Part shown: positions 1,675 to 28,878 of the stretch, in pieces
How positions within the stretch are numbered: the first letter of the stretch is position 1
How the letters are laid out: each line of letters opens with the position of its first letter
Source: Spirochaetia bacterium
Lineage (GTDB): Bacteria; Spirochaetota; Spirochaetia; UBA9216
Length of the DNA: 64,000 nt
Direction of reading: 5' to 3'
Assembly: GCA_963677925.2 (NCBI GenBank)
Contig: CAXXYH010000003.1
Coordinates: 1,248,001-1,312,000 of the forward strand
Notes under the pieces: generated by a model
The model's input: the letters and a program-made list of their open reading frames with translations, nothing else
Databases searched by the model: none
What the model was told of the DNA's origin: nothing
Translations under genes and position numbers: made by a program

Positions 1675-2844
1675 CTAATTAAGCGACAACAGAACACCCG
1701 CAGCAATTGCAGAGCCTATAACTCCGGCTACGTTGGGGCCCATTGCGTTCATAAGCAGGAAGTTGCCCGGATCTTCTTTCTGGCCGACCTTCTGTACTAC
1801 CCGCGCAGCCATCGGTACAGCAGATACTCCTGCGGCTCCGATCATCGGATTGATCTTTCCGCCGCTTATCTTGCTCATCAGCTTTCCAAGCATAACTCCG
1901 CCGCCGGTTCCTACTCCGAATGCTATACATCCGAGTACTATAATGAATATCGTCTCAAATGTAAGGAAGTGGTCGGCTGACATCTTTGAACCTACTGATA
2001 TTCCAAGGAATATCGTTACTATGTTGATAAGCTCGTTCTGGGCTGTCTTTGAAAGCCTGTCTACAACTCCGCATTCCTTGAACAGGTTTCCAAGCATAAG
2101 CATTCCGATAAGCGGTGCTGATGCCGGAATAAGCAGGGCTGTAACTATTGTTGTGATTATCGGGAAAAGAATCTTGGTCCGTTTTGAAACAGGCTTCGGA
2201 TCCTCCATCCTGATAAGTCTTTCCTTCTTGGTTGTAAGAGCCTTGATAATAGGCGGCTGTATAATCGGTACAAGCGCCATATACGTATAGGCTGCTACTG
2301 CAATAGGTCCAAGCAGATGCGGTGCAAGCTTAGATGTGAGATATATAGCTGTAGGACCGTCAGCCCCTCCGATTATTGCGATGGAAGAGGCCTCTGCAAA
2401 GTTGAAGCCCAGATCATGCGCAGCAAGAAAGGGGATTGCTCCAAGAGCCTTGGCTCCAAGCAGGGTTATAAATATACCAAGCTGGGCAGCTGCTCCCAGA
2501 AGAAAGGTCTGCGGCTTGCCCAGAAGCGGTCCGAAGTCCGTCATCGCTCCGATTCCCATGAAGATAATCGGCGGGAACAGTCCAAGCTGAACACCCTGAT
2601 AAAAGTAATATATAAGTCCGCCGGCCTGGTCTCCGATTGGTCCTTCCAAAAGCCCTGTAAGCGGAAGGTTTACCAGTATTGCTCCGAATCCTATCGGGAT
2701 AAGCAGCAGCGGCTCATAACCCTTTGCTATTGCAAGGTAAACAAGCAGACAGCCGATTGCAATCATTACCAGGTTCTGCCAGGTGATTGCCGTGAAGGCG
2801 GTGCTGCTTAGAAATCTTAATATTAGATCTACGAAATTCACCAA
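1675..2844 (-). CDS. mmdB: Na+-translocating decarboxylase beta subunit (OadB/MmdB/GcdB family)
   Basis: Motifs [42 protein letters not shown] and [12 protein letters not shown]; highly hydrophobic. Confidence 0.95.
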
Positions 2845-2853
2845 ATCCCTCCG

Positions 2854-3330
2854 TTAGCCGATGTCTACAAGCGGCTGTCCTTCGGTTACGTTTGTACCCG
2901 GAGTTACATGGATGGCGTTTACTGTACCGGCGTTGCTTGCAAATACTTCAATGTCCATCTTCATTGCTTCCATTATCAGAAGAAGATCTCCCTTGGCTAC
3001 GCTTGCGCCCTGGGCTACCTTGATTTCCTTGATTGTTCCTGTTATTGCAGCCTTCTCGGTTCCGGCTCCGGCTGCTACAGGGGCGGCGGCTGGTGCCGGC
3101 GCGGCGGCTGCGGGAGAGGGTGCTACAGCTGCCGGTGCAGGCGCTGCCGGTGCAGCAGGAGCTGCAGGCGCAGCGGGCGCTGCTACAGGAGCTGCTGTTG
3201 CTCCTGCAGGGGTTGCAAGGCTTACAAGGTAACTATCGCCTTCATGCTCAATTGTAAGGACATTTCCGTTTCTTGTTACGTTTATGTCGTAAAGGGTTCC
3301 TTCATATTCAAACTTAATATTCTTGCTCAT
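2854..3330 (-). CDS. mmdC: Biotin carboxyl carrier (gamma) subunit
   Basis: EAMKM biotinylation motif near the C-terminus; Ala/Pro-rich linker. Confidence 0.93.
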   Translation of the reverse strand: MSKNIKFEYEGTLYDINVTRNGNVLTIEHEGDSYLVSLATPAGATAAPVAAPAAPAAPAAPAAPAPAAVAPSPAAAAPAPAAAPVAAGAGTEKAAITGTIKEIKVAQGASVAKGDLLLIMEAMKMDIEVFASNAGTVNAIHVTPGTNVTEGQPLVDIG

Positions 3331-3335
3331 AACTC

Positions 3336-3722
3336 TTATACTCCTGGTGCTTTTCTTGTGATTTTATTGTTTGCGACCCACGGGTCATACTTTGCTGCTC
3401 CCGCTGAACTCCATCCTGAAGCCTTTGGGGCATTCTGCTCATCTTCCTCAGCTGCCAGAAACGCTGATACCGCAGCCGAAAGCCATTTCGCGTTATCGGC
3501 CATTGTAGCAGTTGCTGCTGCAACTATTACTGGCAGGGGCAGGCCGCCGCTCTTCTTTGCTGAAGATGTCCCGGCAGATTTCGGCGCTTTGCTTTTGGCT
3601 GTATCACCGTCTGCAAATTTCTTTATCAGAACCATCAGCAGACTCAGAAGGACCAACAGTGTAAACACTATCAGTATTCCAAGTATTGATGTCATAACAC
3701 TGTAAATAAATTCTTCCTGCAT
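3336..3722 (-). CDS. mmdD: OadG/MmdD-family membrane anchor (delta) subunit
   Basis: Single N-terminal TM helix (ILGILIVFTLLVLLSLL), an 'IVAAA' segment and a C-terminal W-containing motif; lies between the alpha and biotin-carrier genes. Confidence 0.8.
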   Translation of the reverse strand: MQEEFIYSVMTSILGILIVFTLLVLLSLLMVLIKKFADGDTAKSKAPKSAGTSSAKKSGGLPLPVIVAAATATMADNAKWLSAAVSAFLAAEEDEQNAPKASGWSSAGAAKYDPWVANNKITRKAPGV

Positions 3723-3737
3723 AAAACTCTCCGCCTC

Positions 3738-5288
3738 CTACAGTGGTATATTGCCGTGTTTCTTGGCAGGTCTGTCTTCACGCTTTTTGATGTTGATTTC
3801 AAGCGCTCTGATGAGTTCTGCACGGGTGTATTCGGGGTCGATTATGTCATCTACAAGACCTAGGCCTGCGGCTACGTAGGGGTTCATGAACTCTGTCTGG
3901 AACTCTGCTATCTTTTCCTGTCTCTTTGCTTCAGGATCCGATGCTGAGTTGATGTCCTTTCTGAATATGATGTTTGCTGCGCCCTCTGCTCCCATTACTG
4001 CTATTTCTGCTGTCGGGTATGCAAGGACTCTGTCATATCCAAGAGACTTGGATGACATTGCTATCATTGAACCGCCGTAGGACTTTCTCATAATCAGTGA
4101 AATCTTGGGCACTGTCGCCTCTGCTATTGCGTAGAGGATCTTTGCTCCGTGTCTGATGATTCCGCCGTGCTCCTGGGCAACGCCGGGAAGGTAGCCGGGG
4201 ACATCAACAAGTGTGATTACCGGAATATTGAAAGCATCACAGAAGCGGATGAACCTTGCTCCCTTATCTGATGAGTTGATATCAAGTGAGGCAGCCATGA
4301 ACTTGGGCTGGTTTGCAAAGATACCTACAGTGCGGCCGTTGAGTTTTGCAAAACCTACTACTACGCTTTTTGCGAAGTCTTCCTGTACTTCAAGAAATGA
4401 ACCTGCGTCAAAGGCGCTTCCGATTATGTCGCGTACATCGTAGGGCTTTCTTGCCTCTTCGGGGATGATCGACATGATTTCGGGTGTGGTTCTTTCAAGT
4501 GAATCTGTACAGGCACTTACCGGCGGCTGCTCTGTGTTGTTTGAAGGCAGGTAGTCCATAAGTCTTCTGATGAAATCAAAACATTCCTGCTCGGATGAAA
4601 AACGGAAGTGGGCGACTCCGCTTTTTGCACAGTGAGCTGATGCTCCGCCGAGGTCTTCGTGGCTGATTACCTCACCGGTTACTGTCTTTATTACATCCGG
4701 ACCGGTGATGTACATGTGACTTGAACCGTCTACCATGAATATGAAGTCGGTGATGGCCGGTGAGTAAACTGCACCTCCGGCACAGGGACCGAGTATTACT
4801 GAAAACTGGGGGATAACTCCTGATGAAAGGGTGTTATTCCTGAAAATTTTGGCGTATCCGTTGAGTGAGAGTATTCCCTCCTGGATTCTTGCTCCGCCTG
4901 AATCGTTGACCTGGATAAACGGTGAACCGTTTTTTAGTGCAAGGCTCTGGGCCTCTGCAATCTTTTCGGCATGCATTTCTCCAAGTGAACCGCCGAGAAC
5001 GGTAAAATCCTGGGCTGACAGGAATACCTGCTTGCCGTTCATCTTGCCTGTTCCGGTTACGACTCCGTCGCCGGCAAACTTGTTTTTATCCATGCCGAAC
5101 TGACTGGTGCGGGTCTGGATGTATGCCTGGCTTTCAACGAAACTTCCCTCATCCAGAAGTCCGGTGATCCTTTCTCTGGCGGTAAATTTCCCTTTATCAT
5201 GCTGGGCTTTGATTCTGGCGTCGCCGCCGCCCTTCTGCATTTTTGCTCTGAAGTCTTTAAACTCCTGAAGCCGCTCATTGTTATTCAT
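3738..5288 (-). CDS. mmdA: Acyl-CoA carboxyltransferase, (methyl)malonyl-CoA decarboxylase alpha subunit
   Basis: Motifs QDFTVLGGSLG, DSGGARIQEG, GPCAGGAVYSPA, DVPGYLPGVAQEHGGIIRHGAK and C-terminal KKHGNIPL. Confidence 0.93.
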   Translation of the reverse strand: MNNNERLQEFKDFRAKMQKGGGDARIKAQHDKGKFTARERITGLLDEGSFVESQAYIQTRTSQFGMDKNKFAGDGVVTGTGKMNGKQVFLSAQDFTVLGGSLGEMHAEKIAEAQSLALKNGSPFIQVNDSGGARIQEGILSLNGYAKIFRNNTLSSGVIPQFSVILGPCAGGAVYSPAITDFIFMVDGSSHMYITGPDVIKTVTGEVISHEDLGGASAHCAKSGVAHFRFSSEQECFDFIRRLMDYLPSNNTEQPPVSACTDSLERTTPEIMSIIPEEARKPYDVRDIIGSAFDAGSFLEVQEDFAKSVVVGFAKLNGRTVGIFANQPKFMAASLDINSSDKGARFIRFCDAFNIPVITLVDVPGYLPGVAQEHGGIIRHGAKILYAIAEATVPKISLIMRKSYGGSMIAMSSKSLGYDRVLAYPTAEIAVMGAEGAANIIFRKDINSASDPEAKRQEKIAEFQTEFMNPYVAAGLGLVDDIIDPEYTRAELIRALEINIKKREDRPAKKHGNIPL

Positions 5289-5350
5289 TCTAAGCTCCTG
5301 AATTTCCCAAAAAATTGTGAAAGAATGTAATTTAATTCTTAATACTCAAA

Positions 5351-5376
5351 TTATCCGTAATATAGATTACGGATAA
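5351..5376. other. Intercistronic hairpin between madM and mmdA
   Basis: TTATCCGTAAT-atag-ATTACGGATAA, an 11-bp perfect inverted repeat without a clear U-tract; possible mRNA stabiliser or processing site. Confidence 0.5.
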
Positions 5377-5404
5377 TCAGATTTCCATTTATATACTAAA
5401 CTTA

Positions 5405-6166
5405 CTAGAAAATAGCGTTAACTATCAGATACCCTACTGAAGGACAAAGAAGTGTTCCAAGTCCTGTATAGAAAGTTGCAGTCATTGCACCGTAGGGAAC
5501 AAGCTTGATATCGGTAGCCGCAAGTCCGCCTGCAACACCGCTGGTTGTTCCGATAATTCCGCCGTATACCATTGCTGTAGTCGGGTTATCAAGACCGATC
5601 TTCTTGGCAATGAGCGGTGTCATAATCATTGTAAGAACAGACTTAACAACACCTGCTGCAACAGACAGGGCAACAACCGAAGAACTGACGCCCAGGGCAT
5701 CACCTGTAACAGGACCTACAATGAAGGTAACTGTACCTGCACCGATTGTTGTGAGTTCTTTAGGATCAACAAAGCCGAGTATACGGGCAATTATGACTCC
5801 TACTACGAATGAGAATATTACTCCTATAAAGAGCGATACAACGCCTGCCAATCCTGCTTTTTTAAGATTCTCCATCTTAACACCATATGCTGTTGATACA
5901 ATGGTGTAGTCTCTGAGGGCACTTCCTCCAAGTATGAGAAAACCTGCAAAAAGAGGCAGATCAGCAAGACCTTTTTTTCCGCCGGTGAATTTACCGGCAA
6001 CATATGCAAGAATAAGGGCAAGTATGATTGCAAAAGCAGATCCCATCTTTCCCTGTTTGATCATTTTTGCTACATAGTAAGCAAGAAGCATCGCAAGAGC
6101 GACAAAACCGAAAGCGAGGACAAGGTGATCACGTCCCATGATACTGTTCATTATTTTTGCAATCAT
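5405..6166 (-). CDS. madM: Malonate transporter subunit MadM
   Basis: Motifs GSAFAIILAL, GGKKGLAD, GGSALRD, GTVTFIVGPVTG, GTTSGVAGGLAATD and LVPYGAMTATFYTG. Confidence 0.92.
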   Translation of the reverse strand: MIAKIMNSIMGRDHLVLAFGFVALAMLLAYYVAKMIKQGKMGSAFAIILALILAYVAGKFTGGKKGLADLPLFAGFLILGGSALRDYTIVSTAYGVKMENLKKAGLAGVVSLFIGVIFSFVVGVIIARILGFVDPKELTTIGAGTVTFIVGPVTGDALGVSSSVVALSVAAGVVKSVLTMIMTPLIAKKIGLDNPTTAMVYGGIIGTTSGVAGGLAATDIKLVPYGAMTATFYTGLGTLLCPSVGYLIVNAIF

Positions 6167-6540
6167 ACTTCTTCTCCTTTATCTTTACCAAGTTTGGCTA
6201 CTAATGGTACAAGAAACAGTGAAGCTATAGTTGCAATGCCTCCGGCCAGAAATGCAACCGCACCGCCGTCAACTGCAGCTACAACATTCTGGGATGCTGC
6301 CATAGCAACAACAACCGGAATGTAGATAGAACTCAGAAAAAGTATTCCGTTTTCAGTTTTTGGACTGAAACCGCCCTTTTTTGATTTTTGAACTCTTGCA
6401 GTAACAATAACCAGAAGAAGCATTGCTATACCTACACCGCCGACATTACCCCCGATGCCGATTACCGCACCAAGAATTCTGCCGATGAAATTTCCGACAA
6501 AGTAACAGGCTGCTACTATTCCAAGGCCGTATATTTCCAT
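6163..6540 (-). CDS. madL: Malonate transporter subunit MadL
   Basis: MEIYG start, NVGGVGIAMLLL and YIPVVVAMAASQNV; 4-nt overlap with madM. Confidence 0.92.
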   Translation of the reverse strand: MEIYGLGIVAACYFVGNFIGRILGAVIGIGGNVGGVGIAMLLLVIVTARVQKSKKGGFSPKTENGILFLSSIYIPVVVAMAASQNVVAAVDGGAVAFLAGGIATIASLFLVPLVAKLGKDKGEEV

Positions 6541-6579
6541 ATCCTTTTCTCCTTAAACTTAAATTTGGTTTTAATAGTT

Positions 6580-7803
6580 TTATTTTTTGTCGAAGACAAC
6601 TCCGCTGTTCAGCAGTTCTTCAACTTTTTCTTTTGAATATCCGAGTTCATTCTGCAGATATTCAATTGTGTGCTCCCCAAGTCCGGGAGCCGGTGTTCTG
6701 ACTGTACCGGGAGTTTCCGTCATTTTAAACGGAGATCCGGCCATAGTTACTTTACCAACTCCGGGCTGTTCAACATCAACTATCATTTCGCGGTAAAGCA
6801 GGTTCGGGTCTTTTACAACCTTATCAATTGTGTTCAATGGTGAATACGGCAGGCCGTTTTCATCAAGAAGCTTGATCCATTCTTCGGATGTCTTCTTTTT
6901 CATTTCAACATCCAGAATTCTGACCAGTTCATCTCGGTTCTGTGTTCTGAGAGGATTAGTTTTGAAAAGTTCATGATCAGTCAGATCTTCTCTTTCAATA
7001 AGTGTACAGAATTTCTTCCAGAGAGAATCATTACCGATAGGTGTTATAACCCAGCTGCCGTCACTTGTTTCAAATGCCTGAAACGGAGTTATGGTCGGGT
7101 GAGCACTTCCGAGAGGTACGGGAATTTCACCTTTGGCAGTGTATCTGACAATTGCATTCTCAAGAATGTACACAAGACCGTCTACCATGGAAATATCTAT
7201 ATGCTGTCCTTCGCCGGTTCGGTTTTTATGCTGCAGAGCTGCAAGAATGCCGATCGCACCCTGATGCCCTGCAACTACATCACCTACAGACGAGCCTACA
7301 CGTACCGGAGCTCCGCCGAGGGGTCCTGTGATACTCATCAAACCGCTGAATCCCTGTGCAACCATGTCGTATGCCGGACGGGTTGCATACTCGGGAAGAG
7401 CATCATGTCCGAATCCGCAGATTGAGCAATAAATAATTCCGGGATTTATTTTTTTTAATTCTTCAAATGAGAAACCAAGTTTTCTCATGGTTGTCGGACG
7501 GTAGTTTTCAACTACGATATCCGCATCCTTAATCATGTCCGTCAGCAGAGCCTTACCTTCATCTTTTTTAAGATCAACACAAATACTCTTTTTATTTCTG
7601 TTAATACTGATGAAGTAGCCGCTCTGCTTACCGTCGCCTTCCTGTTCATCGATAAAGGGTCCGAAAGCCCTTGAATCATCACCGATAGGGGGTTCAACTT
7701 TTACAACATCAGCCCCCATATCTGCCAGAATCATCGTGCAGAACGGAGCAGCAAGTACATGACTAAGATCGACTATTTTAATTCCTTCCAATGCCTTTTT
7801 CAT
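6580..7803 (-). CDS. Family III (CaiB/BaiF/Frc) CoA transferase, candidate acetyl-CoA:malonate CoA transferase
   Basis: Motifs LEGIKIVDLSHVLAAP, LADMGADVVKVE, NRNKKSI, VENYRP, GD (catalytic Asp region) and APGLGEHT; SD AGGAGG. Confidence 0.92.
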   Translation of the reverse strand: MKKALEGIKIVDLSHVLAAPFCTMILADMGADVVKVEPPIGDDSRAFGPFIDEQEGDGKQSGYFISINRNKKSICVDLKKDEGKALLTDMIKDADIVVENYRPTTMRKLGFSFEELKKINPGIIYCSICGFGHDALPEYATRPAYDMVAQGFSGLMSITGPLGGAPVRVGSSVGDVVAGHQGAIGILAALQHKNRTGEGQHIDISMVDGLVYILENAIVRYTAKGEIPVPLGSAHPTITPFQAFETSDGSWVITPIGNDSLWKKFCTLIEREDLTDHELFKTNPLRTQNRDELVRILDVEMKKKTSEEWIKLLDENGLPYSPLNTIDKVVKDPNLLYREMIVDVEQPGVGKVTMAGSPFKMTETPGTVRTPAPGLGEHTIEYLQNELGYSKEKVEELLNSGVVFDKK

Positions 7804-18855: not shown

Positions 18856-19842
18856 TTATTCTCTTGCTATAATGGTATAGTTTATCAGATTCTCAGTCAT
18901 CAGAGTTTCTTTAGCTTCTATTGATAATCCACGTGCAATAAAGCCCTGTGATATTTCTCCTATGTCGACAAATGCAGTTTCAATACCATCATACTGACTT
19001 GTTGAAGCTATTACTTTTATAAATTCTGTCCCATAGGGAGCTTCCAGTTCAAAGTTAAAAGGATATGAACCATCCGGTATTTTGTAGATTGTTTCAGAAG
19101 ATATATAATTATTTTCAAAGTACTCATTAGGAAAAATAAGCTGATACTGACCTTCCACATCAATATGATATATTTTTACATAGCAGTTTTTATTGGCTAT
19201 TAAGTTAACAATAAGATTCTCTCCCTCGAAATATACTCCGCCATCCCCCCTGCTTGTCCAACCTTTTAGAACTAATTCATCATCATGCTTTAAAATTCCT
19301 GATATCTCTTTAATTACATTCTTTGCTTTATTATAGTTATCAGGATATAAGGCTATTTTACCTGGAATAACACCCTTAGGGATACTGATTTTAACAGTAT
19401 TTAAAGTAACAGCTGTCCTTATAGAAAGTAAATCCAGATATAACTCAATGTTTTCATCGAAAACATAATACTTCCCGGTTATAAGCGTATCTACACCCTT
19501 CAGTTCTCCAGCTGTAAGTCCAGCTTCATCATCAAACAATCCTGATAATTCAAGGGTTATCTCATCAATGATCTGCTCCATATTATTACGGTTAACGACA
19601 TTAACCGCTGATTCTTCAGTTAAAACAAGTTCAATCCGCTCAGATACATAGGAACTGAATTCAGATCCTATATTTTTATCAGATAGCACAATATTTCCAA
19701 TACCGATTGTTAAATTTTCTTCAACCGGATTGATCAATTTTATTAAAGGGGGATACAGGATTGAATCCATAGAATCTGAAAAAACCAACCCTCCAATAAA
19801 AACAAGATAAATCACTGTCAAAACTTTCTTAGCTAAGCTCAT
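18856..19842 (-). CDS. Exported protein with a CsgG/FlgO-like N-domain and a C-terminal DUF4384 domain
   Basis: Signal peptide; VVNRNNMEQIIDEITLELSGL..GELKGVDTLITG (CsgG/TolB-N-like); YFEGE..CYVKIYHID..LIFPN..PYGTEFIKVIAS (DUF4384). Confidence 0.75.
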   Translation of the reverse strand: MSLAKKVLTVIYLVFIGGLVFSDSMDSILYPPLIKLINPVEENLTIGIGNIVLSDKNIGSEFSSYVSERIELVLTEESAVNVVNRNNMEQIIDEITLELSGLFDDEAGLTAGELKGVDTLITGKYYVFDENIELYLDLLSIRTAVTLNTVKISIPKGVIPGKIALYPDNYNKAKNVIKEISGILKHDDELVLKGWTSRGDGGVYFEGENLIVNLIANKNCYVKIYHIDVEGQYQLIFPNEYFENNYISSETIYKIPDGSYPFNFELEAPYGTEFIKVIASTSQYDGIETAFVDIGEISQGFIARGLSIEAKETLMTENLINYTIIARE

Positions 19843-20000
19843 ACTTCCTTCCATAACTATTTAAAATTCCTCTAACTGATTCACTATACCATGACTGACA
19901 GGTATATCAAAAGTCTTTCTTGACGGCTCCTCGAAGATCAAATACCATATTAAAAATTAAAAAATGCTTTTTATTCTTCCAAAGAAGAATGGGGACAGTA

Positions 20001-23000
20001 ATGAAAAAACTAATAATAATTCTTGTAATCATAATATCTGCATGTAGCTGTTCAACACAGAGTGAATTTCAAAATATCGAATACAAAACAACAACTTCAC
20101 AATATTCAGTAATAAACAGACCGGAAAATCCTCCTTCAGATTTTAATCCTGTGATAGAAATTGATCCCGGCGGACATACCAGTGCTGTAAAAAGTATAAC
20201 AGCTTCAAAATCTGGTATCACTATATTTACCGCAGGGCAGGATAGAGCTATCAGACTTTTTGACAAAGAAACAGGCATGCAGCTTAGCAAATTTATATTT
20301 GAACTCAATTCAACTGGAGGGAAAGCTTTTTTAAATTCTATTTCATTATCACCTGATGAAAATTATATTGCGGCCGGAGGCACAACAGCAGGAATCAGAA
20401 TCTTTGATGTCAACTCAGGTAAAATGGTAAAAATAATTTACGGTCCAATGAGCATTATCCATGACTTGAAATACAGTCCGGACGGTAAATATATCGCGGC
20501 TGGTTTTACAGATGGTAACGGAGGCGGGATAGCTGTTTTTTCTGTTTTAGATAATTATCAGAATATTTTTGAAATTAGAACCGATGATAATTACCCTATG
20601 GATATTGAATTTTTTAATAAAAAGAATGAAGTCTTTTTAACTGCAGGATATGTAAGAAAAGGAAGAATTGATCTCATTTCAGTCACTCTTGAAAAAGTCA
20701 TAAAAACGGTCACAACAACCTCAGTAGTACGTGATATAGCAGTAAATGATAATAGCATTGCAGCAGCCTTTCAGGAAAACAGCGTGATCATTTTTTATGA
20801 TTTAAGTTTGAATAAAGTACGGGAATTAAGAAGTGAAATTAAAAATCCATATAAAATACTTTTTACGCCTGATAATAGGTATGTAGTAATTGGTGCTGGT
20901 TCCGGACTTCCCTTTAAGTGCATAAGCTATGAATTGAAAACTCTACAAAAAGTCTCTGAGTTTACCATGCATGAAGGCTCGGTATTATCAATGGCATCAC
21001 TCCCGGATAATACAATATTAAGTGGCGGTGTCGAAGGAAAAATCTTCAATTGGAATCCTGAAACAGGGACTCTGGTTATGGAATTGGGAAAACAGGAACA
21101 ACCAATCAGACGTATATGTACTGACGGTCAGAAAATCTTCTTTGCTTATAACTGGACACGAAACAATTCTGAAATTTCCGAATTTAATTTTTCCGGTTAT
21201 ATAAAACCAGAGAATTTCAATTTTGAAATGGGCGATTTCAGTATACCTCAGGGTTCTTTTCTAAACACGGAAAAGGATGGTCTGAAAATACAAGCAGTTA
21301 ATTCTGCCGAGATTGAACTAACACTTGATAACGGTGAAAAGAAGATTATTTCTCCTGGATACGGATCCCGGGGCTTGGGTATCACAAAAGACAGGTTATT
21401 TGTGATCGGCAGCTGGGAAGGCACGATATCAATCTTTGATTCTGAAGGTAATTTCAGAGCAAAACTCACAGGGCATGATGGTGTAGTATCCGGATTTACA
21501 GAATATAAAGACTACCTTGTCTCCTGCGGTGATGACAGAACTATACGATTCTGGGATCTTGGCATAATTGATGATCTCTCAGCTCTCCCTATGAGTTTTA
21601 TTATAAAAGAAGTTTTTCCCGGAGGCCCGGCAGATAAATCCGGACTTGATGCAGGGGATATAATAATTGCTGTCAATGGTAGAAAATTCAATGATACTAC
21701 TTCGTTTGTAGATTATGTCCGCAACACCAATCAATGCAGTTTTGAAATAAGAAGGGAGAATAGGAATATCACAATTGATGCAGCGAAGGAAGAAAATGAG
21801 ATGTATGCATTCTCACTTGGAACAAATGAATCATCTCTAAAACCTTCAATATCCTTTTATATATCACAGAAAGAAGGAATTGTTGCCTGGACACCTGATG
21901 GAGCATTTGATGGTTCCATGGGAGCCGGCGAAAATATTGGGTTTCATATCAACCAGGGATTGACATATGAATCGGATTGGCTGCCCTTAAGGCAACTGGC
22001 TGATATCTACTATAAACCGGGACTTGTAACGGATTTTTTTAACGGAAATCAAATAACCCCACCGCCATCGATAAAATCACTTAAACTTCCACCTATACTT
22101 ACTGTTCTGAACATTGTAAAAAAAGATGATCTTGCGTTAATCAAGTTAAGATGTGAAGATCGCGGAGGTGATGCAGTAAATATCAAACTCTATAGAAATA
22201 ACAGAATTGTTGAGACTTCAATTGAGACCACCTATTCTGAAAAAATGGTTAAAGAGTTTGAACTGACATCTGAAATGACAGATGGAAAAAATGTATTTCT
22301 TATTTCGGCTGAATCAACAGATACACTAACCTCATTCTCAAATAAAGTTGAATTTATCAACCCCACAACTAATGAGACTAAACCCGAATTATACATATTA
22401 TCTGCCGGAGTAAACACATACTCAGATATTAATTTAAATACCGAAAAACGGGGATTGACCATAAATAAAACCGCGAACAGCCAGGACTCAAATAATGAAA
22501 AAGTAACAAACTACAATTATTTCCCAAGTCTGAACTATTCAGTAAAAGATGCTGAAGATTTTACTGCTGCCTACATGGGTGGGGGGCCGAACAAGTTTTC
22601 CAACACTGCAGTAACTACGCTGATTGATGACAATGCAACAAAAGAAAATATTATTAATAATCTCAATGAACTCTCACAAAAAACGGACTCAAATGACCGT
22701 GTAGTACTGTTTTTTGCGGGACATGGTATAACAGTGGAAAAACAGTATTACTTTGTACCCTATGGAGTAAACACTCTCGAAGAGGTTAAGGAATTCGGAA
22801 TATCCGCTGAAGAAATAACAAACTGCATTGAAAAAATACAGGCTGATGAAATCTTTCTTATTCTTGACACGTGTCAAAGCGGTGCAACCAATGATGAACT
22901 CTCTAAAAGCATTTTCGGATCGTTGCTCCTGTTAGGAGAAAAGACCGGGATTTGGGTTATGGCTTCTTCTACGGAATCAGAAGCTAGCCTTGAAAGCAGT

Positions 23001-23204
23001 CAACTTGAAAATGGTCTATTTACTTACTGCTTAACTGATGTAATCAAGTCAGCCAAAGATCTTCCTTATGGAATTTATTTTCAGGAGGCGGCATTAAAAA
23101 CAAATAAACTCATCAAGGAAAAACTAAAAATTTTCAGTACAAATTCTACGCTTAATCAGACAATCATGTTTACACATGAGATGGATACAATATTTGCTCA
23201 ATGA
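20001..23204 (+). CDS. Lipoprotein with WD40 repeats, a PDZ domain and a C-terminal caspase-like (peptidase C14) domain
   Basis: Lipobox-like IISACSC; WD repeats (GHTSAVKS, GHDGVV..TIRFWD); PDZ (VFPGGPADKSGLDAGDIIIAVNG); catalytic dyad FFAGHG and LDTCQSG. Confidence 0.88.
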   Translation: MKKLIIILVIIISACSCSTQSEFQNIEYKTTTSQYSVINRPENPPSDFNPVIEIDPGGHTSAVKSITASKSGITIFTAGQDRAIRLFDKETGMQLSKFIFELNSTGGKAFLNSISLSPDENYIAAGGTTAGIRIFDVNSGKMVKIIYGPMSIIHDLKYSPDGKYIAAGFTDGNGGGIAVFSVLDNYQNIFEIRTDDNYPMDIEFFNKKNEVFLTAGYVRKGRIDLISVTLEKVIKTVTTTSVVRDIAVNDNSIAAAFQENSVIIFYDLSLNKVRELRSEIKNPYKILFTPDNRYVVIGAGSGLPFKCISYELKTLQKVSEFTMHEGSVLSMASLPDNTILSGGVEGKIFNWNPETGTLVMELGKQEQPIRRICTDGQKIFFAYNWTRNNSEISEFNFSGYIKPENFNFEMGDFSIPQGSFLNTEKDGLKIQAVNSAEIELTLDNGEKKIISPGYGSRGLGITKDRLFVIGSWEGTISIFDSEGNFRAKLTGHDGVVSGFTEYKDYLVSCGDDRTIRFWDLGIIDDLSALPMSFIIKEVFPGGPADKSGLDAGDIIIAVNGRKFNDTTSFVDYVRNTNQCSFEIRRENRNITIDAAKEENEMYAFSLGTNESSLKPSISFYISQKEGIVAWTPDGAFDGSMGAGENIGFHINQGLTYESDWLPLRQLADIYYKPGLVTDFFNGNQITPPPSIKSLKLPPILTVLNIVKKDDLALIKLRCEDRGGDAVNIKLYRNNRIVETSIETTYSEKMVKEFELTSEMTDGKNVFLISAESTDTLTSFSNKVEFINPTTNETKPELYILSAGVNTYSDINLNTEKRGLTINKTANSQDSNNEKVTNYNYFPSLNYSVKDAEDFTAAYMGGGPNKFSNTAVTTLIDDNATKENIINNLNELSQKTDSNDRVVLFFAGHGITVEKQYYFVPYGVNTLEEVKEFGISAEEITNCIEKIQADEIFLILDTCQSGATNDELSKSIFGSLLLLGEKTGIWVMASSTESEASLESSQLENGLFTYCLTDVIKSAKDLPYGIYFQEAALKTNKLIKEKLKIFSTNSTLNQTIMFTHEMDTIFAQ

Positions 23205-24384: not shown

Positions 24385-24975
24385 CTAATCATCCAGCGGT
24401 TCCAGCTCTTCAATCAGCGCATCACCGTTATCAATTTCATTCATAAACCACTCTTTCATCTCACGGAAGCGGATTTCACGCAGCTGGTCATTTTTTGATG
24501 AAAGGCTGCATCCAAGCAGTTCATCAAAGTATTTTACAAGACCCGGATGCGGTCCTGCCTCGGGCCGTATCCGCCTAAGCTCGTCCACGGCCTTCTGCTC
24601 ATCATTATGGATAAGATACAGGTAGCCAAGGGCTATAGCCGCCGATCTGGAGACTCCACGCCAGCAGTGAATTACGTAGCCGCTTGCGCTGTCCTTTGTT
24701 TTATTGAAATATCTGATTGCCCTTCTTGCATCACGCTTCTGAGGTATCCGCTTTGGCCGCATAGTACCCAGATGTTCTTTTTTCAGAACATCAAAGAACT
24801 CAAGTCTGAGTATTGATTTGAAAGTCTTTTTGAATATCTCAGGTACTATAGTGTCCACACTATGCCGGAAAAATTTTCCCGGATTACCTATTGAGACAAG
24901 ATGGGTTTCAAGAGGCTCTCCCTTTTCGATCAGCTCAATAAGCTCTGTCTGTCCGTAAATCTGTATCTTCATCAT
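24385..24975 (-). CDS. Protein-tyrosine/dual-specificity phosphatase-like protein
   Basis: CX5R P-loop IHCWRGVSRS, LRLEFFD acid loop and RPEAGPH. Confidence 0.85.
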   Translation of the reverse strand: MMKIQIYGQTELIELIEKGEPLETHLVSIGNPGKFFRHSVDTIVPEIFKKTFKSILRLEFFDVLKKEHLGTMRPKRIPQKRDARRAIRYFNKTKDSASGYVIHCWRGVSRSAAIALGYLYLIHNDEQKAVDELRRIRPEAGPHPGLVKYFDELLGCSLSSKNDQLREIRFREMKEWFMNEIDNGDALIEELEPLDD

Positions 24976-25037: not shown

Positions 25038-25361
25038 TCAGGATTTTCTGTAAACAAGTAATGAGGCTGTGCCTGTACCCTTAGTGAATACTATTGTGAA
25101 ACTGTATACGGGTAATGTTTTCTCTGTGAAATCAAGCTCATCTATTTCTACCGCTTCATCAGCAATTGTAACCCTTGCACTCACGGGAACTGCTTCCTCT
25201 GCAGGTTTAATCACCGTTTCAGGAAAATTAGCAGCAATTTCAAGAGACATTCCCTCAACTTCAGTTCTGTAAAGATCTCCGGTTATAAGTTTATCTTCAA
25301 TAACCGAAACAGCCTCGTCATATCCTGTCAGGACGTATTCGTTTTCTTTTTCCATTCCCAT
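25038..25361 (-). CDS. Small acidic hypothetical protein
   Basis: 107-aa ORF co-oriented with the phosphatase gene; a TATAAT box lies just upstream. Confidence 0.6.
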   Translation of the reverse strand: MGMEKENEYVLTGYDEAVSVIEDKLITGDLYRTEVEGMSLEIAANFPETVIKPAEEAVPVSARVTIADEAVEIDELDFTEKTLPVYSFTIVFTKGTGTASLLVYRKS

Positions 25362-25488
25362 AAGCTTAATTATAATTATTTTTTATTCTGAATCAAAAAA
25401 TCTTGATATTTTCCATCTTAGTGTTACAATTACACATATAGATAGTGTTTATTCAACACTAATATTTAGGTAATTAAGGAAACAGCTG

Positions 25489-27417
25489 ATGATTGGAGCA
25501 GTAATAGGTTCACCCTATGAGGTTAAATCAACCAAAGATAAGAGCTTTCCCCTGATAACTATTTTTTCGAATATTACTGATGATACAGTTATGACCTGCG
25601 CCGCGGCCCTGACACTCCTGAACAGGGGACTTGATGCTGAGGCTGATGATTTTGCTGATTCGTTCCGTAAACTCGGTAATAAGTATCCCGGTGCCGGTTA
25701 TGGGGGTAATTTCAGGCGATGGCTGCAGAAACCCGATGCTCCTGCGTATAATTCATGGGGCAACGGTTCCGCTATGAGGGTCAGCCCTATCGGATGGATT
25801 GGGGAGGATGAAAAAACGGTTCTGATACTTGCCGAAGCCTCTGCAGCCTGTACTCATAACCATCCTGACGGAATAAAAGGCGCTCAGGCTTCAGCCCTGG
25901 CCGTTTTTATGGCCAGAAAAGGAAAATCAAAGGCAGAAATCAGGGGTCGTCTCACAGAACTTTTCGGATATGACCTGAATAGAAAAACAGATGACATAAG
26001 AGAAAATTATACTTTCCAGGTCAGCTGCATGGAATCAGTACCGGAAGCTATCATTGCATTTCTTGATTCAGACAGCTTTGAAGATGCCCTGCGTAATGCT
26101 GTTTCGCTTGGAGGCGATTCCGATACCCAGGCGGCAATCTGCTGCTCGATCGCCGAAGCCTTCTACGGGGAAATCCCTGAAAAAATATTAGCAATGGTTC
26201 TTCCCCGCATTCCGCATGATCTGCTCTCTATTGTTCACAGCTTCTCGCAGAGCTGTCTTCCTGAATCATCTGTAAAGGCTGTTAGAAATGAAATGAAATA
26301 CAGATCAGGAAATAACATGGATGGAATCTTTAAGCAGCCCGGCCGCTACAGCATTCTGCTTCACTCAAAAACGCAGAATAATCTACAGGACTACATGGAT
26401 TCATTAAAAGACGGAACCGCTGCTCCCGGAAGACGGCTGCAGCAACAGCTTGAAGGGTTTCAGGTCGCAAAAGAAAAATGGGAGTTTATGCTTCAGTGCC
26501 TGTTGAACAGCAAGCAGCCGCGTATTTACGCAGAAAGCGAACTCAGAGGCGACGGCAGCGACTGGAATAATGAGGAACTTAAAATACTCGGCGGTATATC
26601 TGTTGCCGTTCCCGTAAGCGTTTTTGACGATGGCAGACACTATGCACCTGAAATCCATACAGAACCCTTTGAAGCCTGTCTTATTTATACTCCGGGAGTA
26701 CTGCGAAGAAACGACACCGGCGATCCCCCCGTAGACCGGGACATTATATCTGACGGCAGTATAAATCAGGATTTATTCACCGAACTCTATGAAATAAAGC
26801 TGCTCCCGGCATTTAAATACGCCAGTGCAGTTTCCCTGAAAAAGAACAAAAAGGCCATAGTAACAGTGCCGGGAATAGGCTGCGGGCAGTTCGCCGGCCG
26901 GTATAAACACAATGCCCCCTACTATCTCAAAACCGCACTTGAAAGCATCCTTGAGAAACATTGTGAAAGTCTCAGGGGAATAGCCCTTGTATATTATCAT
27001 CCCTACAGTGAATGCTCTGATGATGAAAAAACATTCGGCAGTCTTACAATGAAGACCCGTCCGCTAAGAAAAACCTCGCGCCCGCTTTCCCAGCTATTCA
27101 GACCACAAGCCTACGCCGAGAACGGGGATGATTATTCAGGACATGAACTTTACAGCATAGTAGCCTGGGATCATGTCTCATGGCCCGGGAATGATTTTTA
27201 TACAGGAAACAGGGCAACAGACGACGGGGTGAAGGCTGCGGCAACCGATTCAATGTTCAGAATTACCGGGATACGGGGTTTTTATGATTCTGATACAAAC
27301 AGATACCTGCCCCCGAAAGGATATGAAAACTGGGAAAGCGCGGTGCTTCAGAACCGTCTGGAACTCAGGGCATCGGGGAATGTTATTCTTACCGGAGATG
27401 ATACGCTGTGGAAGTGA
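25489..27417 (+). CDS. ADP-ribosylglycohydrolase (DraG/ARH) fused to a MavL-like macrodomain
   Basis: N-half: TDDT, GNGSAMR, THNH and GGDSDT. C-half: PRIYAESE..GDGSDW, PGIGCGQFAG and AWDHVSWPGNDFY..RATDDGVKAAAT. Confidence 0.85.
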   Translation: MIGAVIGSPYEVKSTKDKSFPLITIFSNITDDTVMTCAAALTLLNRGLDAEADDFADSFRKLGNKYPGAGYGGNFRRWLQKPDAPAYNSWGNGSAMRVSPIGWIGEDEKTVLILAEASAACTHNHPDGIKGAQASALAVFMARKGKSKAEIRGRLTELFGYDLNRKTDDIRENYTFQVSCMESVPEAIIAFLDSDSFEDALRNAVSLGGDSDTQAAICCSIAEAFYGEIPEKILAMVLPRIPHDLLSIVHSFSQSCLPESSVKAVRNEMKYRSGNNMDGIFKQPGRYSILLHSKTQNNLQDYMDSLKDGTAAPGRRLQQQLEGFQVAKEKWEFMLQCLLNSKQPRIYAESELRGDGSDWNNEELKILGGISVAVPVSVFDDGRHYAPEIHTEPFEACLIYTPGVLRRNDTGDPPVDRDIISDGSINQDLFTELYEIKLLPAFKYASAVSLKKNKKAIVTVPGIGCGQFAGRYKHNAPYYLKTALESILEKHCESLRGIALVYYHPYSECSDDEKTFGSLTMKTRPLRKTSRPLSQLFRPQAYAENGDDYSGHELYSIVAWDHVSWPGNDFYTGNRATDDGVKAAATDSMFRITGIRGFYDSDTNRYLPPKGYENWESAVLQNRLELRASGNVILTGDDTLWK

Positions 27418-27424
27418 GTAAATA

Positions 27425-28147
27425 ATGAATAGTCTAAGAGTAATAGATAATGCTGCCGTCTATCGTGGGGATCTCCAGGATAATTCAGTACACAGCCATC
27501 ACGCCATGCAGATCATCATTTCGCCTGAGGGTGAAGCAGAACTTCTGATAAACAATCGTTTAATCAAATATGAATCAATTATAATAAATCATGATATTCC
27601 GCATGCCGTTAAGAATACATCAAAAAATCTTGTTATCATTTTGTTTGAACCGCTTCTCGATAGTTTATTTAAACTTTCTCTGGATGCTGACTATGAAATA
27701 CTCAATCAGAACTTACAGGCAACATTGCTGGATGTTATTTCAGGAAGAATTGATAAAAATATCATTAAACTTGTTTTCAAAGAAAAAAGCAGGATTAAAT
27801 TAGACCCGCGAATCCAATTTATAATCAATCATGTAGAGAGAGAGGAAAACTGCATTCATGATCTCACCTACTACGAAGATAAACTTAGCCTGTCAAAAAG
27901 CAGAATCTCGCACCTCTTCACCGGAGAAATCGGCATACCTCTAAAACAGTACATTTTATGGAAAAAGCTTCTCTTTGCCATTGACTCAATCCGTTCAGTC
28001 TCAGATTTAAGCCAAATTGCGATTGACTGCGGATTTTCTGATCTGTCTCATTTAAGCCGTACCTTTAAAAAGATGTTCGGCCACACAACCTCGTCAATAT
28101 TTAAAAACAGCAGTTCCGTTCAAGTCAATTTTTCAGATTCCCTGTAA
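27425..28147 (+). CDS. AraC-family transcriptional regulator
   Basis: N-terminal cupin HSHHAMQI; C-terminal LSKSRISHLF..CGFSDLSHLSRTFKKMFG. Confidence 0.9.
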   Translation: MNSLRVIDNAAVYRGDLQDNSVHSHHAMQIIISPEGEAELLINNRLIKYESIIINHDIPHAVKNTSKNLVIILFEPLLDSLFKLSLDADYEILNQNLQATLLDVISGRIDKNIIKLVFKEKSRIKLDPRIQFIINHVEREENCIHDLTYYEDKLSLSKSRISHLFTGEIGIPLKQYILWKKLLFAIDSIRSVSDLSQIAIDCGFSDLSHLSRTFKKMFGHTTSSIFKNSSSVQVNFSDSL

Positions 28148-28170: not shown

Positions 28171-28878
28171 ATGAAAGAATATTTACAGGAAACTGAGTTA
28201 TTAAATTTTACTAATCCATCAATAACTGAACTTTCATTAAAAATGGGGTGGAAAAATCTATCTGAGACAGAAAAAATAAGAAGTATCTATGATTATGTAC
28301 GTGATGATATAAAATTCGGCTATAACATAGATGACAAAATTCCCGCCAGTCAGGTTCTAAGCGACGGATACGGTCAATGCAATACAAAAGCGATTTTATT
28401 TATGACGTTGCTCCGGAAAGAAGGAATTCCGTGCAGATTTCACGGCTTTACTATCAATAAAGCACTGCAGAAAGGAGCGATTACCGGTATATGGTACAAG
28501 CTTAGTCCAAAGTCCATTGTTCATAGCTGGGTCGAAATTTATCACGATGGTGTTTGGTATGATATAGAAGGATTTATAATTGACATTGAATATTTGACGA
28601 CAATACAGATGCTGAATCCGGATTCTAAAAACTTCTGCGGATACGGGATCGCCACAAAAGACCTGATGAATCCTGAGGTTAAATGGAACAGAAACAATAC
28701 CTACATACAGAAAGAAGGGATCAATAATGATTTTGGAATTTACAGCGATCCTGATTCATTTTTCGGTGAACACAGTCAAAAACTTGGACACCTGAAGCGA
28801 ACTGTATACAGACATCTCACAAGACATATAATGAACAGAAATGTAAAAAGAATCAGAACTTATCAAATCAAAGAATAA
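28171..28878 (+). CDS. Transglutaminase-like protein
   Basis: Cys-His-Asp triad region GYGQCNTK, HSWVE and WYDIEG. Confidence 0.85.
   Translation: MKEYLQETELLNFTNPSITELSLKMGWKNLSETEKIRSIYDYVRDDIKFGYNIDDKIPASQVLSDGYGQCNTKAILFMTLLRKEGIPCRFHGFTINKALQKGAITGIWYKLSPKSIVHSWVEIYHDGVWYDIEGFIIDIEYLTTIQMLNPDSKNFCGYGIATKDLMNPEVKWNRNNTYIQKEGINNDFGIYSDPDSFFGEHSQKLGHLKRTVYRHLTRHIMNRNVKRIRTYQIKE

Follow-up and report, generated by a model that had tools for sequence, protein, structure and literature searches.

To our knowledge, the only known macrodomains of the MavL class are those of Legionella effectors and of two fly proteins, and Arg-specific removal of ADP-ribose in bacteria is otherwise ascribed to ADP-ribosylglycohydrolase (ARH) enzymes such as DraG and Tri1. 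Another ARH enzyme, ARH3 (ADPRHL2), hydrolyzes Ser-ADP-ribose, poly-ADP-ribose and O-acetyl-ADP-ribose. Here we describe a gene from a Spirochaetia bacterium (25489..27417, plus strand) in a stretch of 64,000 nt (contig CAXXYH010000003.1, positions 1,248,001 to 1,312,000; hereafter "the window"), whose predicted product combines a compact ARH domain, a helical linker and a MavL-class macrodomain in a single intact reading frame of 642 aa (P0001; open reading frame listing and translation), as assigned by Pfam, PDB searches and an AlphaFold2 model.

In the parts of PMC10951314 used here, MavL, Larg1 and two Drosophila DUF4804 proteins are reported to cleave the Arg-linked peptide only, out of a substrate panel comprising Arg, Ser, Thr, Cys, a His-mimic and thymine in single-stranded DNA. 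The MavL residues described there as needed for activity or ligand binding include those whose mutation cripples the enzyme (F227, D315, D323 and D333, with weaker effects for N322 and T331, as well as F105 and E107), and the family motifs are defined as [VIL]xGxGxGx[FWY] and WDxx[SA]xPGN[DE][FY][FWY]. ARH proteins, for their part, have been placed at the center of predicted "ARG-centric" host systems that would counter viral ADP-ribosylation (Iyer et al., Viruses 2022, 14:1977; PMC9503650 section 3.8). In that section these systems are built around an ARH to which no writer is coupled; more than 42% include a Nudix-HTH or WYL regulator and more than 55% a phosphatase, in most cases from the rhodanese-phosphatase superfamily. 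Peptide-binding chaperones (vWA, SseB, TY-Chap) and occasionally a Macro or NADAR protein complete them. The authors' proposal, itself a prediction, is that the systems reverse viral ADP-ribosylation, with free ADP-ribose as the inducer; the taxa named in the section are actinobacteria, planctomycetes and proteobacteria, not Spirochaetota.

Domain structure of the fusion protein

The C-terminal half of P0001 (residues 287-612; 26347..27324, plus strand) matches the MavL-class (DUF4804-type) family PF24754 over the complete profile (positions 1-325 of 325; E-value 3.8e-116, 387.9 bits against a cut-off of 27), which puts the match far outside the range of chance. The sequence search of PDB ranked six MavL chains first (E-values 3.5e-71 to 8.4e-69, query residues 269/286-613), followed by ARH3, a Thermus ARH, MJ1187, DraG, Tri1 and ARH1. 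The AlphaFold2 model, built on 39 relatives, reached a mean predicted local distance difference test (pLDDT) value of 88.5 and a predicted template-modeling score (pTM) of 0.87. Foldseek aligned this model with the MavL crystal chains over ~359 columns (E-value 4e-29, target-normalized template-modeling (TM) score 0.86-0.89, root-mean-square deviation 2.0-2.6 A), with ARH3 chains next in rank for the whole-protein model (TM 0.54-0.60, E-value ~1e-11). The macrodomain half is ~37% identical to MavL.

MavL positions were numbered as the 8dmp_A chain index + 36 (HMMER alignment), whereby F227 and D315 land on the right letters. The diphosphate loop PGIGCGQF (residues 461-468; 26869..26892, plus strand) brings F468 onto MavL F227, and V460-P-G-I-G-C-G-Q-F468 conforms to the first family motif. 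The catalytic loop WDHVSWPGNDFY (residues 560-571; 27166..27201, plus strand, W560 starting at nt 27166) conforms from W560 to Y571 to the second, with D561/N568/D569 aligned to D315/N322/D323. T577-D578-D579 (27217..27225, plus strand), within ATDDG 576-580, corresponds to T331-D332-D333. In the 8dmp_A alignment E107 corresponds to E349 and F105 to Y347, while the adenine-stacking H142 and P264-Y265 correspond to H384 and P505-Y506. All catalytic and ADP-ribose-binding MavL residues named in the parts of PMC10951314 used here are kept, F105 as Y.

The initial annotation, made from the sequence alone, had recognized two unrelated ADP-ribose-removing folds in one polypeptide, and the Pfam matches (PF03747 and PF24754) bear this out. 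The motifs it had quoted are all present (TDDT 30-33, GNGSAMR 91-97, GGDSDT 208-213, PGIGCGQFAG 461-470 and the catalytic loop 560-571), and the D-x6-N-D-x9-D spacing (D561/N568/D569/D579) is indeed that of MavL D315/N322/D323/D333, according to both the 8dmp_A alignment and the residue list in PMC10951314. Its assignment of the C-terminal half to a MavL-like macrodomain had been left to a structural alignment, and the alignment with MavL described above agrees with it. Sequence, motifs and predicted fold all identify the C-terminal half as a true MavL-class macrodomain.

The ARH domain (approximately residues 1-256; 25489..26256, plus strand) belongs to a widespread subfamily of stand-alone ARH proteins of ~256 aa. 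Pfam PF03747 (ADP_ribosyl_GH) matches residues 29-228 (E-value 3.3e-35, 122.6 bits against a cut-off of 26.2), partially, from profile position 48 to 281 of 287. Residues 1-264 searched alone against PDB retrieved ARH3 as the best match (E-value 1e-14), then the Thermus ARH, MJ1187, DraG (E-value 4e-7) and ARH1 (E-value ~8e-4). The scores against the NCBIfam models for DraG (TIGR02662, 49.2 bits, cut-off 337.05) and for Tri1 (NF041672, "ADP-ribosylarginine hydrolase Tri1", 26.7 bits, cut-off 490) were far below threshold. The term "DraG-like" used in the initial annotation is thus appropriate for the superfamily and not for DraG specifically, with ARH3 matching better and the DraG model falling below its cut-off.

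In the alignment to 2foz (ARH3 numbering being the chain 2foz_A index + 16), T30-D31-D32 (25576..25584, plus strand) and D210/D212/T213 of GGDSDT 208-213 (26110..26127, plus strand) match human ARH3 T76-D77-D78 and D314/D316/T317, the residues of the metal site. We take T76-D77-D78 and D314-x-D316-T317 of ARH3 to be its Mg ligands; the PDB titles among the Foldseek matches include the ARH3 mutants D77A, D314A/E and E41A. GNGSAMR occupies residues 91-97. Of the N-terminal Gx3GDxxGxxxE motif, whose Glu is ARH3 E41, G7-S-P-Y-E11 is present, and the HMMER alignments to solved ARHs begin at residues 28-30.

The short N-terminus MIGAVIGSPYE is the real start, since a ribosome-binding site AAGGA (25476..25480, plus strand) is located 8 nt 5' of the ATG. 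A promoter-like TTGATA-16-TACAAT with TG (25403..25430, plus strand) is a consensus match only; sites of this kind are no more numerous in the region than expected from shuffled sequence. Neither the translation nor the AlphaFold2 model reveals a leader at the N-terminus, which is part of the ARH fold (first 10 residues at pLDDT 94); the fusion protein is for these reasons most likely cytoplasmic. The G+C content (GC) of the gene (0.47) is similar to that of its surroundings.

Conservation and distribution of the fusion

We aligned 39 fusion proteins, 45-52% identical to P0001 and in one case (P0002) 91%. W560, D561, S564, G567, N568 and D569 of the macrodomain and E11, T30-D31-D32 and D210/D212/T213 of the ARH domain are invariant in 39/39, and the MavL-class catalytic and ligand residues listed above are invariant or at least 90% conserved. 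Both domains are full-length, and the pattern of conservation indicates that both active sites are under purifying selection.

The best 120 protein clusters retrieved with the whole protein comprise 44 with both Pfam domains, 73 with the MavL domain only (~355 aa) and three with the ARH only. All six named fusion clusters belong to Spirochaetota, and the fusion relatives come from environmental metagenome-assembled genomes of this phylum. In the ARH tree (137 rows) all 39 fusions fall on one side of a branch with a Shimodaira-Hasegawa-like approximate likelihood ratio test (SH-aLRT) value of 98. In the MavL tree (112 rows) the MavL parts of the fusions are found in a 43-row clade (SH-aLRT 99) together with four stand-alone proteins, one of which (P0050, 419 aa on a contig of 1346 bases) is probably a fragment. 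The simplest reading of these trees is one fusion event followed by joint descent.

The fusion architecture is rare, and stand-alone proteins corresponding to either half are common. Among 401 genomes sampled from the phylum two contain the full-length architecture and 58 others the ARH only; the MavL family was detected in 3 of 61 relatives and in one of 10 other genomes of the same taxonomic family. A survey of the 79 best ARH loci in one-genome-per-species contigs identified 74 stand-alone relatives of the ARH half (49-56% identical, from many phyla) and two fusions (L002 and L005), while a metagenome scan by ARH-only patterns found 80 stand-alone ARH loci and no fusion. One metagenome contig (L115, 1069-3677) carries NrtR, a NadR/PnuC hybrid reading frame and a compact ARH whose frame stops at 3568, with another frame open to the contig end; it may represent a frameshifted or truncated fusion. 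No MavL-type gene was found in the flanks (up to 8 kb) of the 74 stand-alone ARH loci and no ARH beside three stand-alone MavL loci; the two families are therefore not habitual neighbors. Recent horizontal transfer of the fusion gene was considered and is supported by neither GC nor synteny, although the gene is missing from nine of the 10 other genomes of the same family.

The stand-alone ARH proteins are mostly 252-300 aa long, and the short N-terminus is common to the whole ~256-aa subfamily. Compact ARH proteins are also encoded on plasmids and in jumbo, Porphyromonas and Bacteroides phages (37-48% identity). In the 15 phage records listed (of 18), all matches to the window protein lie within residues 1-272, at identities up to 47.7%, and none involves the MavL part. 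The Porphyromonas and Bacteroides phage copies (L206 3989-5090 and L207 3989-5078; 43% and 38% identical) are both followed by an overlapping hypothetical reading frame of ~108 aa, at the edge of an early or lysogeny module. Tandem ARH-ARH proteins also exist (P0044, P0046 and P0047, 667-777 aa, with a weak VWA match in P0044 and P0046), so that, as far as sequences indicate, the compact ARH has repeatedly been joined to a second ADP-ribose hydrolase.

The MavL family comprises 528 clusters at 50% identity (E-value <= 1e-3), mostly stand-alone proteins of ~350 aa or long proteins, a few of them with ankyrin repeats. Among 59 long representatives none contains an ARH, four contain ankyrin repeats and one an lpg1496_N domain; a DSP-PTPase-MavL fusion is also known (P0078). 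The fusion forms one derived clade within the 528-cluster family, and the earlier suggestion that it could indicate the ancestral role of MavL domains is not supported. In the literature on MavL and macrodomains we found no description of an ARH-MavL fusion (the word "fusion" does not occur in PMC10951314, nor "fused" or "fusion" in PMC11668277). Public annotation already places both Pfam domains on the fusion proteins, and the combination is probably listed in domain-architecture tables.

Proposed function and its alternatives

We propose, with about an even chance of being right, that the fusion protein works in the cytoplasm as a two-headed eraser of mono-ADP-ribose marks on proteins, acting within an ARG-centric or nicotinamide adenine dinucleotide (NAD)/ADP-ribose network. 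Such an enzyme would strip mono-ADP-ribose from proteins and release free ADP-ribose. The MavL-class head would cleave, like all family members assayed so far and without metal, the N-glycosidic bond in ADP-ribosyl-arginine, and the ARH head, with ARH3 as its nearest solved relative, may use a two-metal site to attack a different linkage (O-linked, e.g. serine, or O-acetyl-ADP-ribose) or, alternatively, a different set of arginine targets. Given such a difference in linkage or targets, one protein would clear marks that neither head clears alone. The freed ADP-ribose would probably be degraded further by a phosphatase and Nudix proteins, and in relatives it could de-repress NrtR, thereby coupling repair to NAD salvage. 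As we found no ADP-ribosyltransferase in the genome, the writer of the mark would be foreign (from a phage or competitor) or a sirtuin.

Analysis of the genomic neighborhood revealed a probable partner, a Cys-phosphatase of the DSP-PTPase type (P0122, 196 aa; 24385..24975, minus strand) recognized by its CX5R motif HCWRGVSRS. Its gene lies upstream of the fusion gene on the other strand and is read away from it, and the Pfam matches of the protein are weak (DSPc, E-value 5.7e-5, below cut-off; Tc-R-P, also weak). The genome has exactly two copies of this phosphatase type, paralogs that are 39% identical. The other copy belongs to a second ADP-ribose cassette (G000:C3:893590-895900, equal to L212 4067-6341, minus strand), in which an NrtR-type Nudix regulator and a 318-aa ARH are immediately followed by the phosphatase paralog, the genes standing back to back. 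A third ARH (355 aa; L212 7839-11022, minus strand, G000:C3 ~897340-900520) lies between a histone-deacetylase-family gene and a gene for a DUF1152 protein, and may be another writer-free eraser module. In one relative (G110, fusion 46% identical) NrtR, a CobB-like Sir2 and the fusion stand back to back on one strand, with the fusion as the last gene and that genome's sole copy of the P0122-type phosphatase divergent beside the operon. In L002 the same arrangement consists of a NadR-like gene, PnuC and, again last, the fusion.

Several observations weigh against our proposal. The fusion contexts with readable flanks number three: the window (with its congener G804), G110 and L002. No NrtR, Sir2 or NAD gene adjoins the window fusion (Pfam), whose downstream neighbors are an AraC-type regulator, a transglutaminase-like protein and a thioesterase; the regulator in the window is of the AraC type and not the Nudix-HTH or WYL protein of ARG-centric systems. 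In G110, the adjacent CobB-like Sir2 breaks the rule that such systems have no coupled writer. The phosphatase is dispensable, because its gene is absent from G804 (where ~60 nt remain between the flanking genes) and because the G110 copy is internally deleted and has lost the segment with CX5R. P0001 and its 91% relative P0002 are without the Asp of the N-terminal "GD" motif, which is kept in at least 90% of the other fusions (MIGAIxGDVLGSxYE being reduced to MIGAVIGSPYE), and, judging from the sequence, this genus may have a weakened ARH head. A search of the genome for ART, DRAT and exotoxin-type ADP-ribosyltransferases (PF01129, PF07357, PF03496) found none, a weak search that also gave zero in the control genomes. 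Finally, assays of members of the compact ARH clade or of bacterial non-effector MavL homologs were not found in the literature searched.

The alternative that survives best, although we regard it as rather unlikely, is small-molecule salvage. According to it, the protein would act on soluble ADP-ribose derivatives (O-acetyl-ADP-ribose from CobB-type sirtuins, free ADP-ribosyl-arginine, imported ribosyl compounds) and return ADP-ribose to NAD salvage and the NrtR circuit, with no protein repair. ARH3 and MacroD-type macrodomains do hydrolyze O-acetyl-ADP-ribose. Two of the three readable contexts (NrtR-CobB-fusion in G110 and NadR-PnuC-fusion in L002) are NAD-homeostasis operons. In another genome of the same class (G817; L211 9119-14282), the binding protein and both permeases of a sugar-type ABC transporter are encoded in one operon with an inosine-uridine nucleoside hydrolase, and a stand-alone 363-aa MavL-family gene is the last of this operon. 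It is because of these contexts that salvage stays a serious rival. NrtR homologs were further detected by tblastn near stand-alone compact ARH genes in seven loci. Among 125 close same-strand neighbors of stand-alone ARH genes, NAMPT, PnuC, Macro, Nudix and cREC appear once each and NrtR twice; the commonest families are Lactamase_B_2 and PP2C/SpoIIE (six each), followed by PNP_UDP_1 (five) and Fic (three), about half have no family, and several repeats come from related contigs. This heterogeneity speaks against salvage, and a conserved operon for the stand-alone ARH was rejected on the same ground. The window's own neighbors are not NAD genes, and the four MavL-class enzymes assayed so far all have Arg-ADP-ribosylated peptides or proteins as substrates according to PMC10951314, a paper in which O-acetyl-ADP-ribose is not mentioned.

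It is less probable still that only one head is catalytic and the other a reader, i.e. that the ARH half (in this genus) or either domain merely binds ADP-ribose and holds the substrate. Non-catalytic binders are known among macrodomains and ARH-like proteins, and the loss of the "GD" Asp in P0001 and P0002 alone, as well as the start of the Pfam ARH match at profile position 48 of 287, would agree with a reader. The ARH metal-site and macrodomain catalytic residues are, however, invariant in 39 sequences of ~50% identity, a degree of conservation that simple binding would not lead one to expect; the whole stand-alone subfamily has the short N-terminus, and the first 10 residues are modeled with the high pLDDT given above.

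We consider it quite improbable that the gene provides immunity to a single cognate toxin that ADP-ribosylates Arg (Tri1/Tre1-like) or is a mobile gene for defense against phages, a role suggested by the initial annotation. ARH members do serve as immunity proteins (NCBIfam NF041672, Tri1), the compact ARH does occur in phages and on plasmids, and the distribution is patchy (one of 10 other genomes of the family). The 64-kb window, however, contains no toxin, secretion-system, mobile-element or defense gene by Pfam scan and no defense island, PADLOC-DB 2.0 reported no families for P0001 and five neighbors, the Tri1 model scored 26.7 against its cut-off of 490, and the MavL part has no match in the listed phage records. 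The synteny of the fusion locus is stable between the two species of the genus (the window genome and G804), with a gene GC like that of the surroundings, and the NrtR-CobB and NadR-PnuC contexts of the relatives fit NAD/ADP-ribose housekeeping equally well. A secreted or injected effector acting on eukaryotic host ubiquitin, like Legionella MavL, can practically be dismissed: the 37% identity to MavL and the ankyrin repeats (4/59) or lpg1496_N domain (1/59) of long family members are opposed by the missing leader, the absence of ankyrin or effector-type domains and of secretion genes nearby, the environmental Spirochaetota origin of the relatives and a housekeeping-type ARH as fusion partner.

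The two-headed eraser of protein ADP-ribosylation could, in a more tentative extension that we think unlikely, serve as the executing component of a self-inducing "ADP-ribose damage" circuit. A foreign ADP-ribosyltransferase would mark host proteins, the two heads would strip N-linked (Arg) and O-linked marks, and the freed ADP-ribose would lift NrtR repression, giving more eraser and more NAD uptake and salvage (PnuC, NadR, CobB), whereby the NAD consumed by the attacker would be refilled. If this were true, the protein would be the first pan-linkage eraser and would give macrodomains of the MavL class their first physiological role within bacteria; cycles of Arg-ADP-ribosylation would then be implied for Spirochaetota. 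Apart from the circuit, a natural weld of two eraser folds, with both sites under purifying selection, suggests that the heads are not redundant in vivo, and offers a clean system for asking what each fold removes. By way of the NrtR, CobB, PnuC and phosphatase neighbors, the MavL class is linked to NAD/ADP-ribose homeostasis in bacteria and to the predicted ARG-centric systems, and a single soluble protein would suffice for a direct test of the 2022 prediction. Should the two heads prove to have identical tasks, no more than a detail of annotation would remain.

The remaining genes of the window give no sign of an effector context, as had been noted initially: malonate/oxaloacetate decarboxylase genes, sensors, ABC transporters and glycosidases identify an ordinary chromosome with metabolic, transport and signaling functions (Pfam). 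A 107-aa reading frame (25038..25361, minus strand) separates the phosphatase gene from the fusion gene; it has no family match in Pfam, NCBIfam or PADLOC, is 93% conserved in G804 and was not found in G110. The AraC-type regulator (27425..28147, plus strand; Pfam) starts 7 nt downstream of the fusion gene and the transglutaminase-like gene (28171..28878, plus strand; Pfam) 23 nt after it. No terminator-like site was found between these genes and the fusion, with which they are probably co-transcribed; a functional link is doubtful. They were rejected as core partners on account of their lower GC (0.35 for the pair, against 0.47 for the fusion gene and ~0.45 for the surroundings), their faster divergence (identity to G804 70% for AraC and 77% for the transglutaminase-like protein, against 91% for the fusion and 98% for the next gene) and their absence beside the G110 and L002 fusions. 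Further away, a 1094-aa protein (19920-23204, plus strand) combines WD40 repeats, PDZ and a C-terminal caspase (Peptidase_C14) with a weak PADLOC "caspase" match; a gene for a DUF4384 protein (18856-19854, minus strand) adjoins it, and both are 90-94% conserved in G804. An ordinary-looking cluster of the malonate/oxaloacetate decarboxylase type (1675-7803, minus strand) encodes MadL, MadM, CoA-transferase, carboxyltransferase, biotin carrier and OAD beta.

Comparison with described systems

With MavL (Legionella pneumophila lpg2526; PF24754, PF16062; PDB 8DMP, 8DMR, 6OMI, 8XEP, 8IPW) the window protein shares a full-length domain, both motifs and the predicted fold, and its macrodomain is expected, by analogy, to carry out the same chemistry, a metal-independent hydrolysis of ADP-ribosyl-arginine. 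It differs in that the macrodomain is fused behind an ARH, at ~37% identity, and that the protein is predicted to be cytoplasmic and comes from a bacterium of free-living type that has neither a ubiquitin substrate nor a SidE-type writer. In the diphosphate loop, T224 and C226 of MavL are replaced by C465 and Q467, and K236 is not kept.

ARH3 (ADPRHL2), the best solved match of the other half, has the same fold and the same TDD and DxDT metal motifs. The window ARH is ~25% identical and ~90 residues shorter (a core of ~256 aa without the first helix), and in the window genus it lacks the N-terminal "GD" Asp. DraG, ARH1 and Tri1 are more distant, the protein scoring below the equivalog cut-offs of DraG and Tri1.

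NrtR-regulated NAD salvage and sirtuin-macrodomain operons (NrtR regulon; CobB; PnuC-NadR) are the third point of comparison: the NrtR, CobB, PnuC and NadR neighbors are also classical NAD-homeostasis genes, and in both G110 and L002 an operon of this type ends with the fusion. The window locus is not of this kind, and a MavL-class macrodomain or compact ARH as a member of the NrtR regulon was not found described in the literature searched.

The ARG-centric systems resemble the locus in their ARH core with an adjacent phosphatase of the rhodanese/PTP superfamily, in the vWA domain of the related ARH-ARH proteins and in their occasional Macro partners. The Pfam scan of the reading frames revealed no coupled ADP-ribosyltransferase or sirtuin in the window, and P0122 would be the coupled phosphatase by virtue of its CX5R, with Pfam matches below cut-off. 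An NrtR gene occurs in G110 and in the second cassette of the window genome, and a vWA, SseB or TY-Chap chaperone was not matched by Pfam among the neighbors, which include the family-less 107-aa frame. The NrtR-ARH-phosphatase cassette of the same genome fits the ARG-centric template, by analogy of gene content, and the fusion locus would be a variant of these modules with an imperfect fit, distinguished by a MavL-class Macro partner that is joined to the ARH in one protein.

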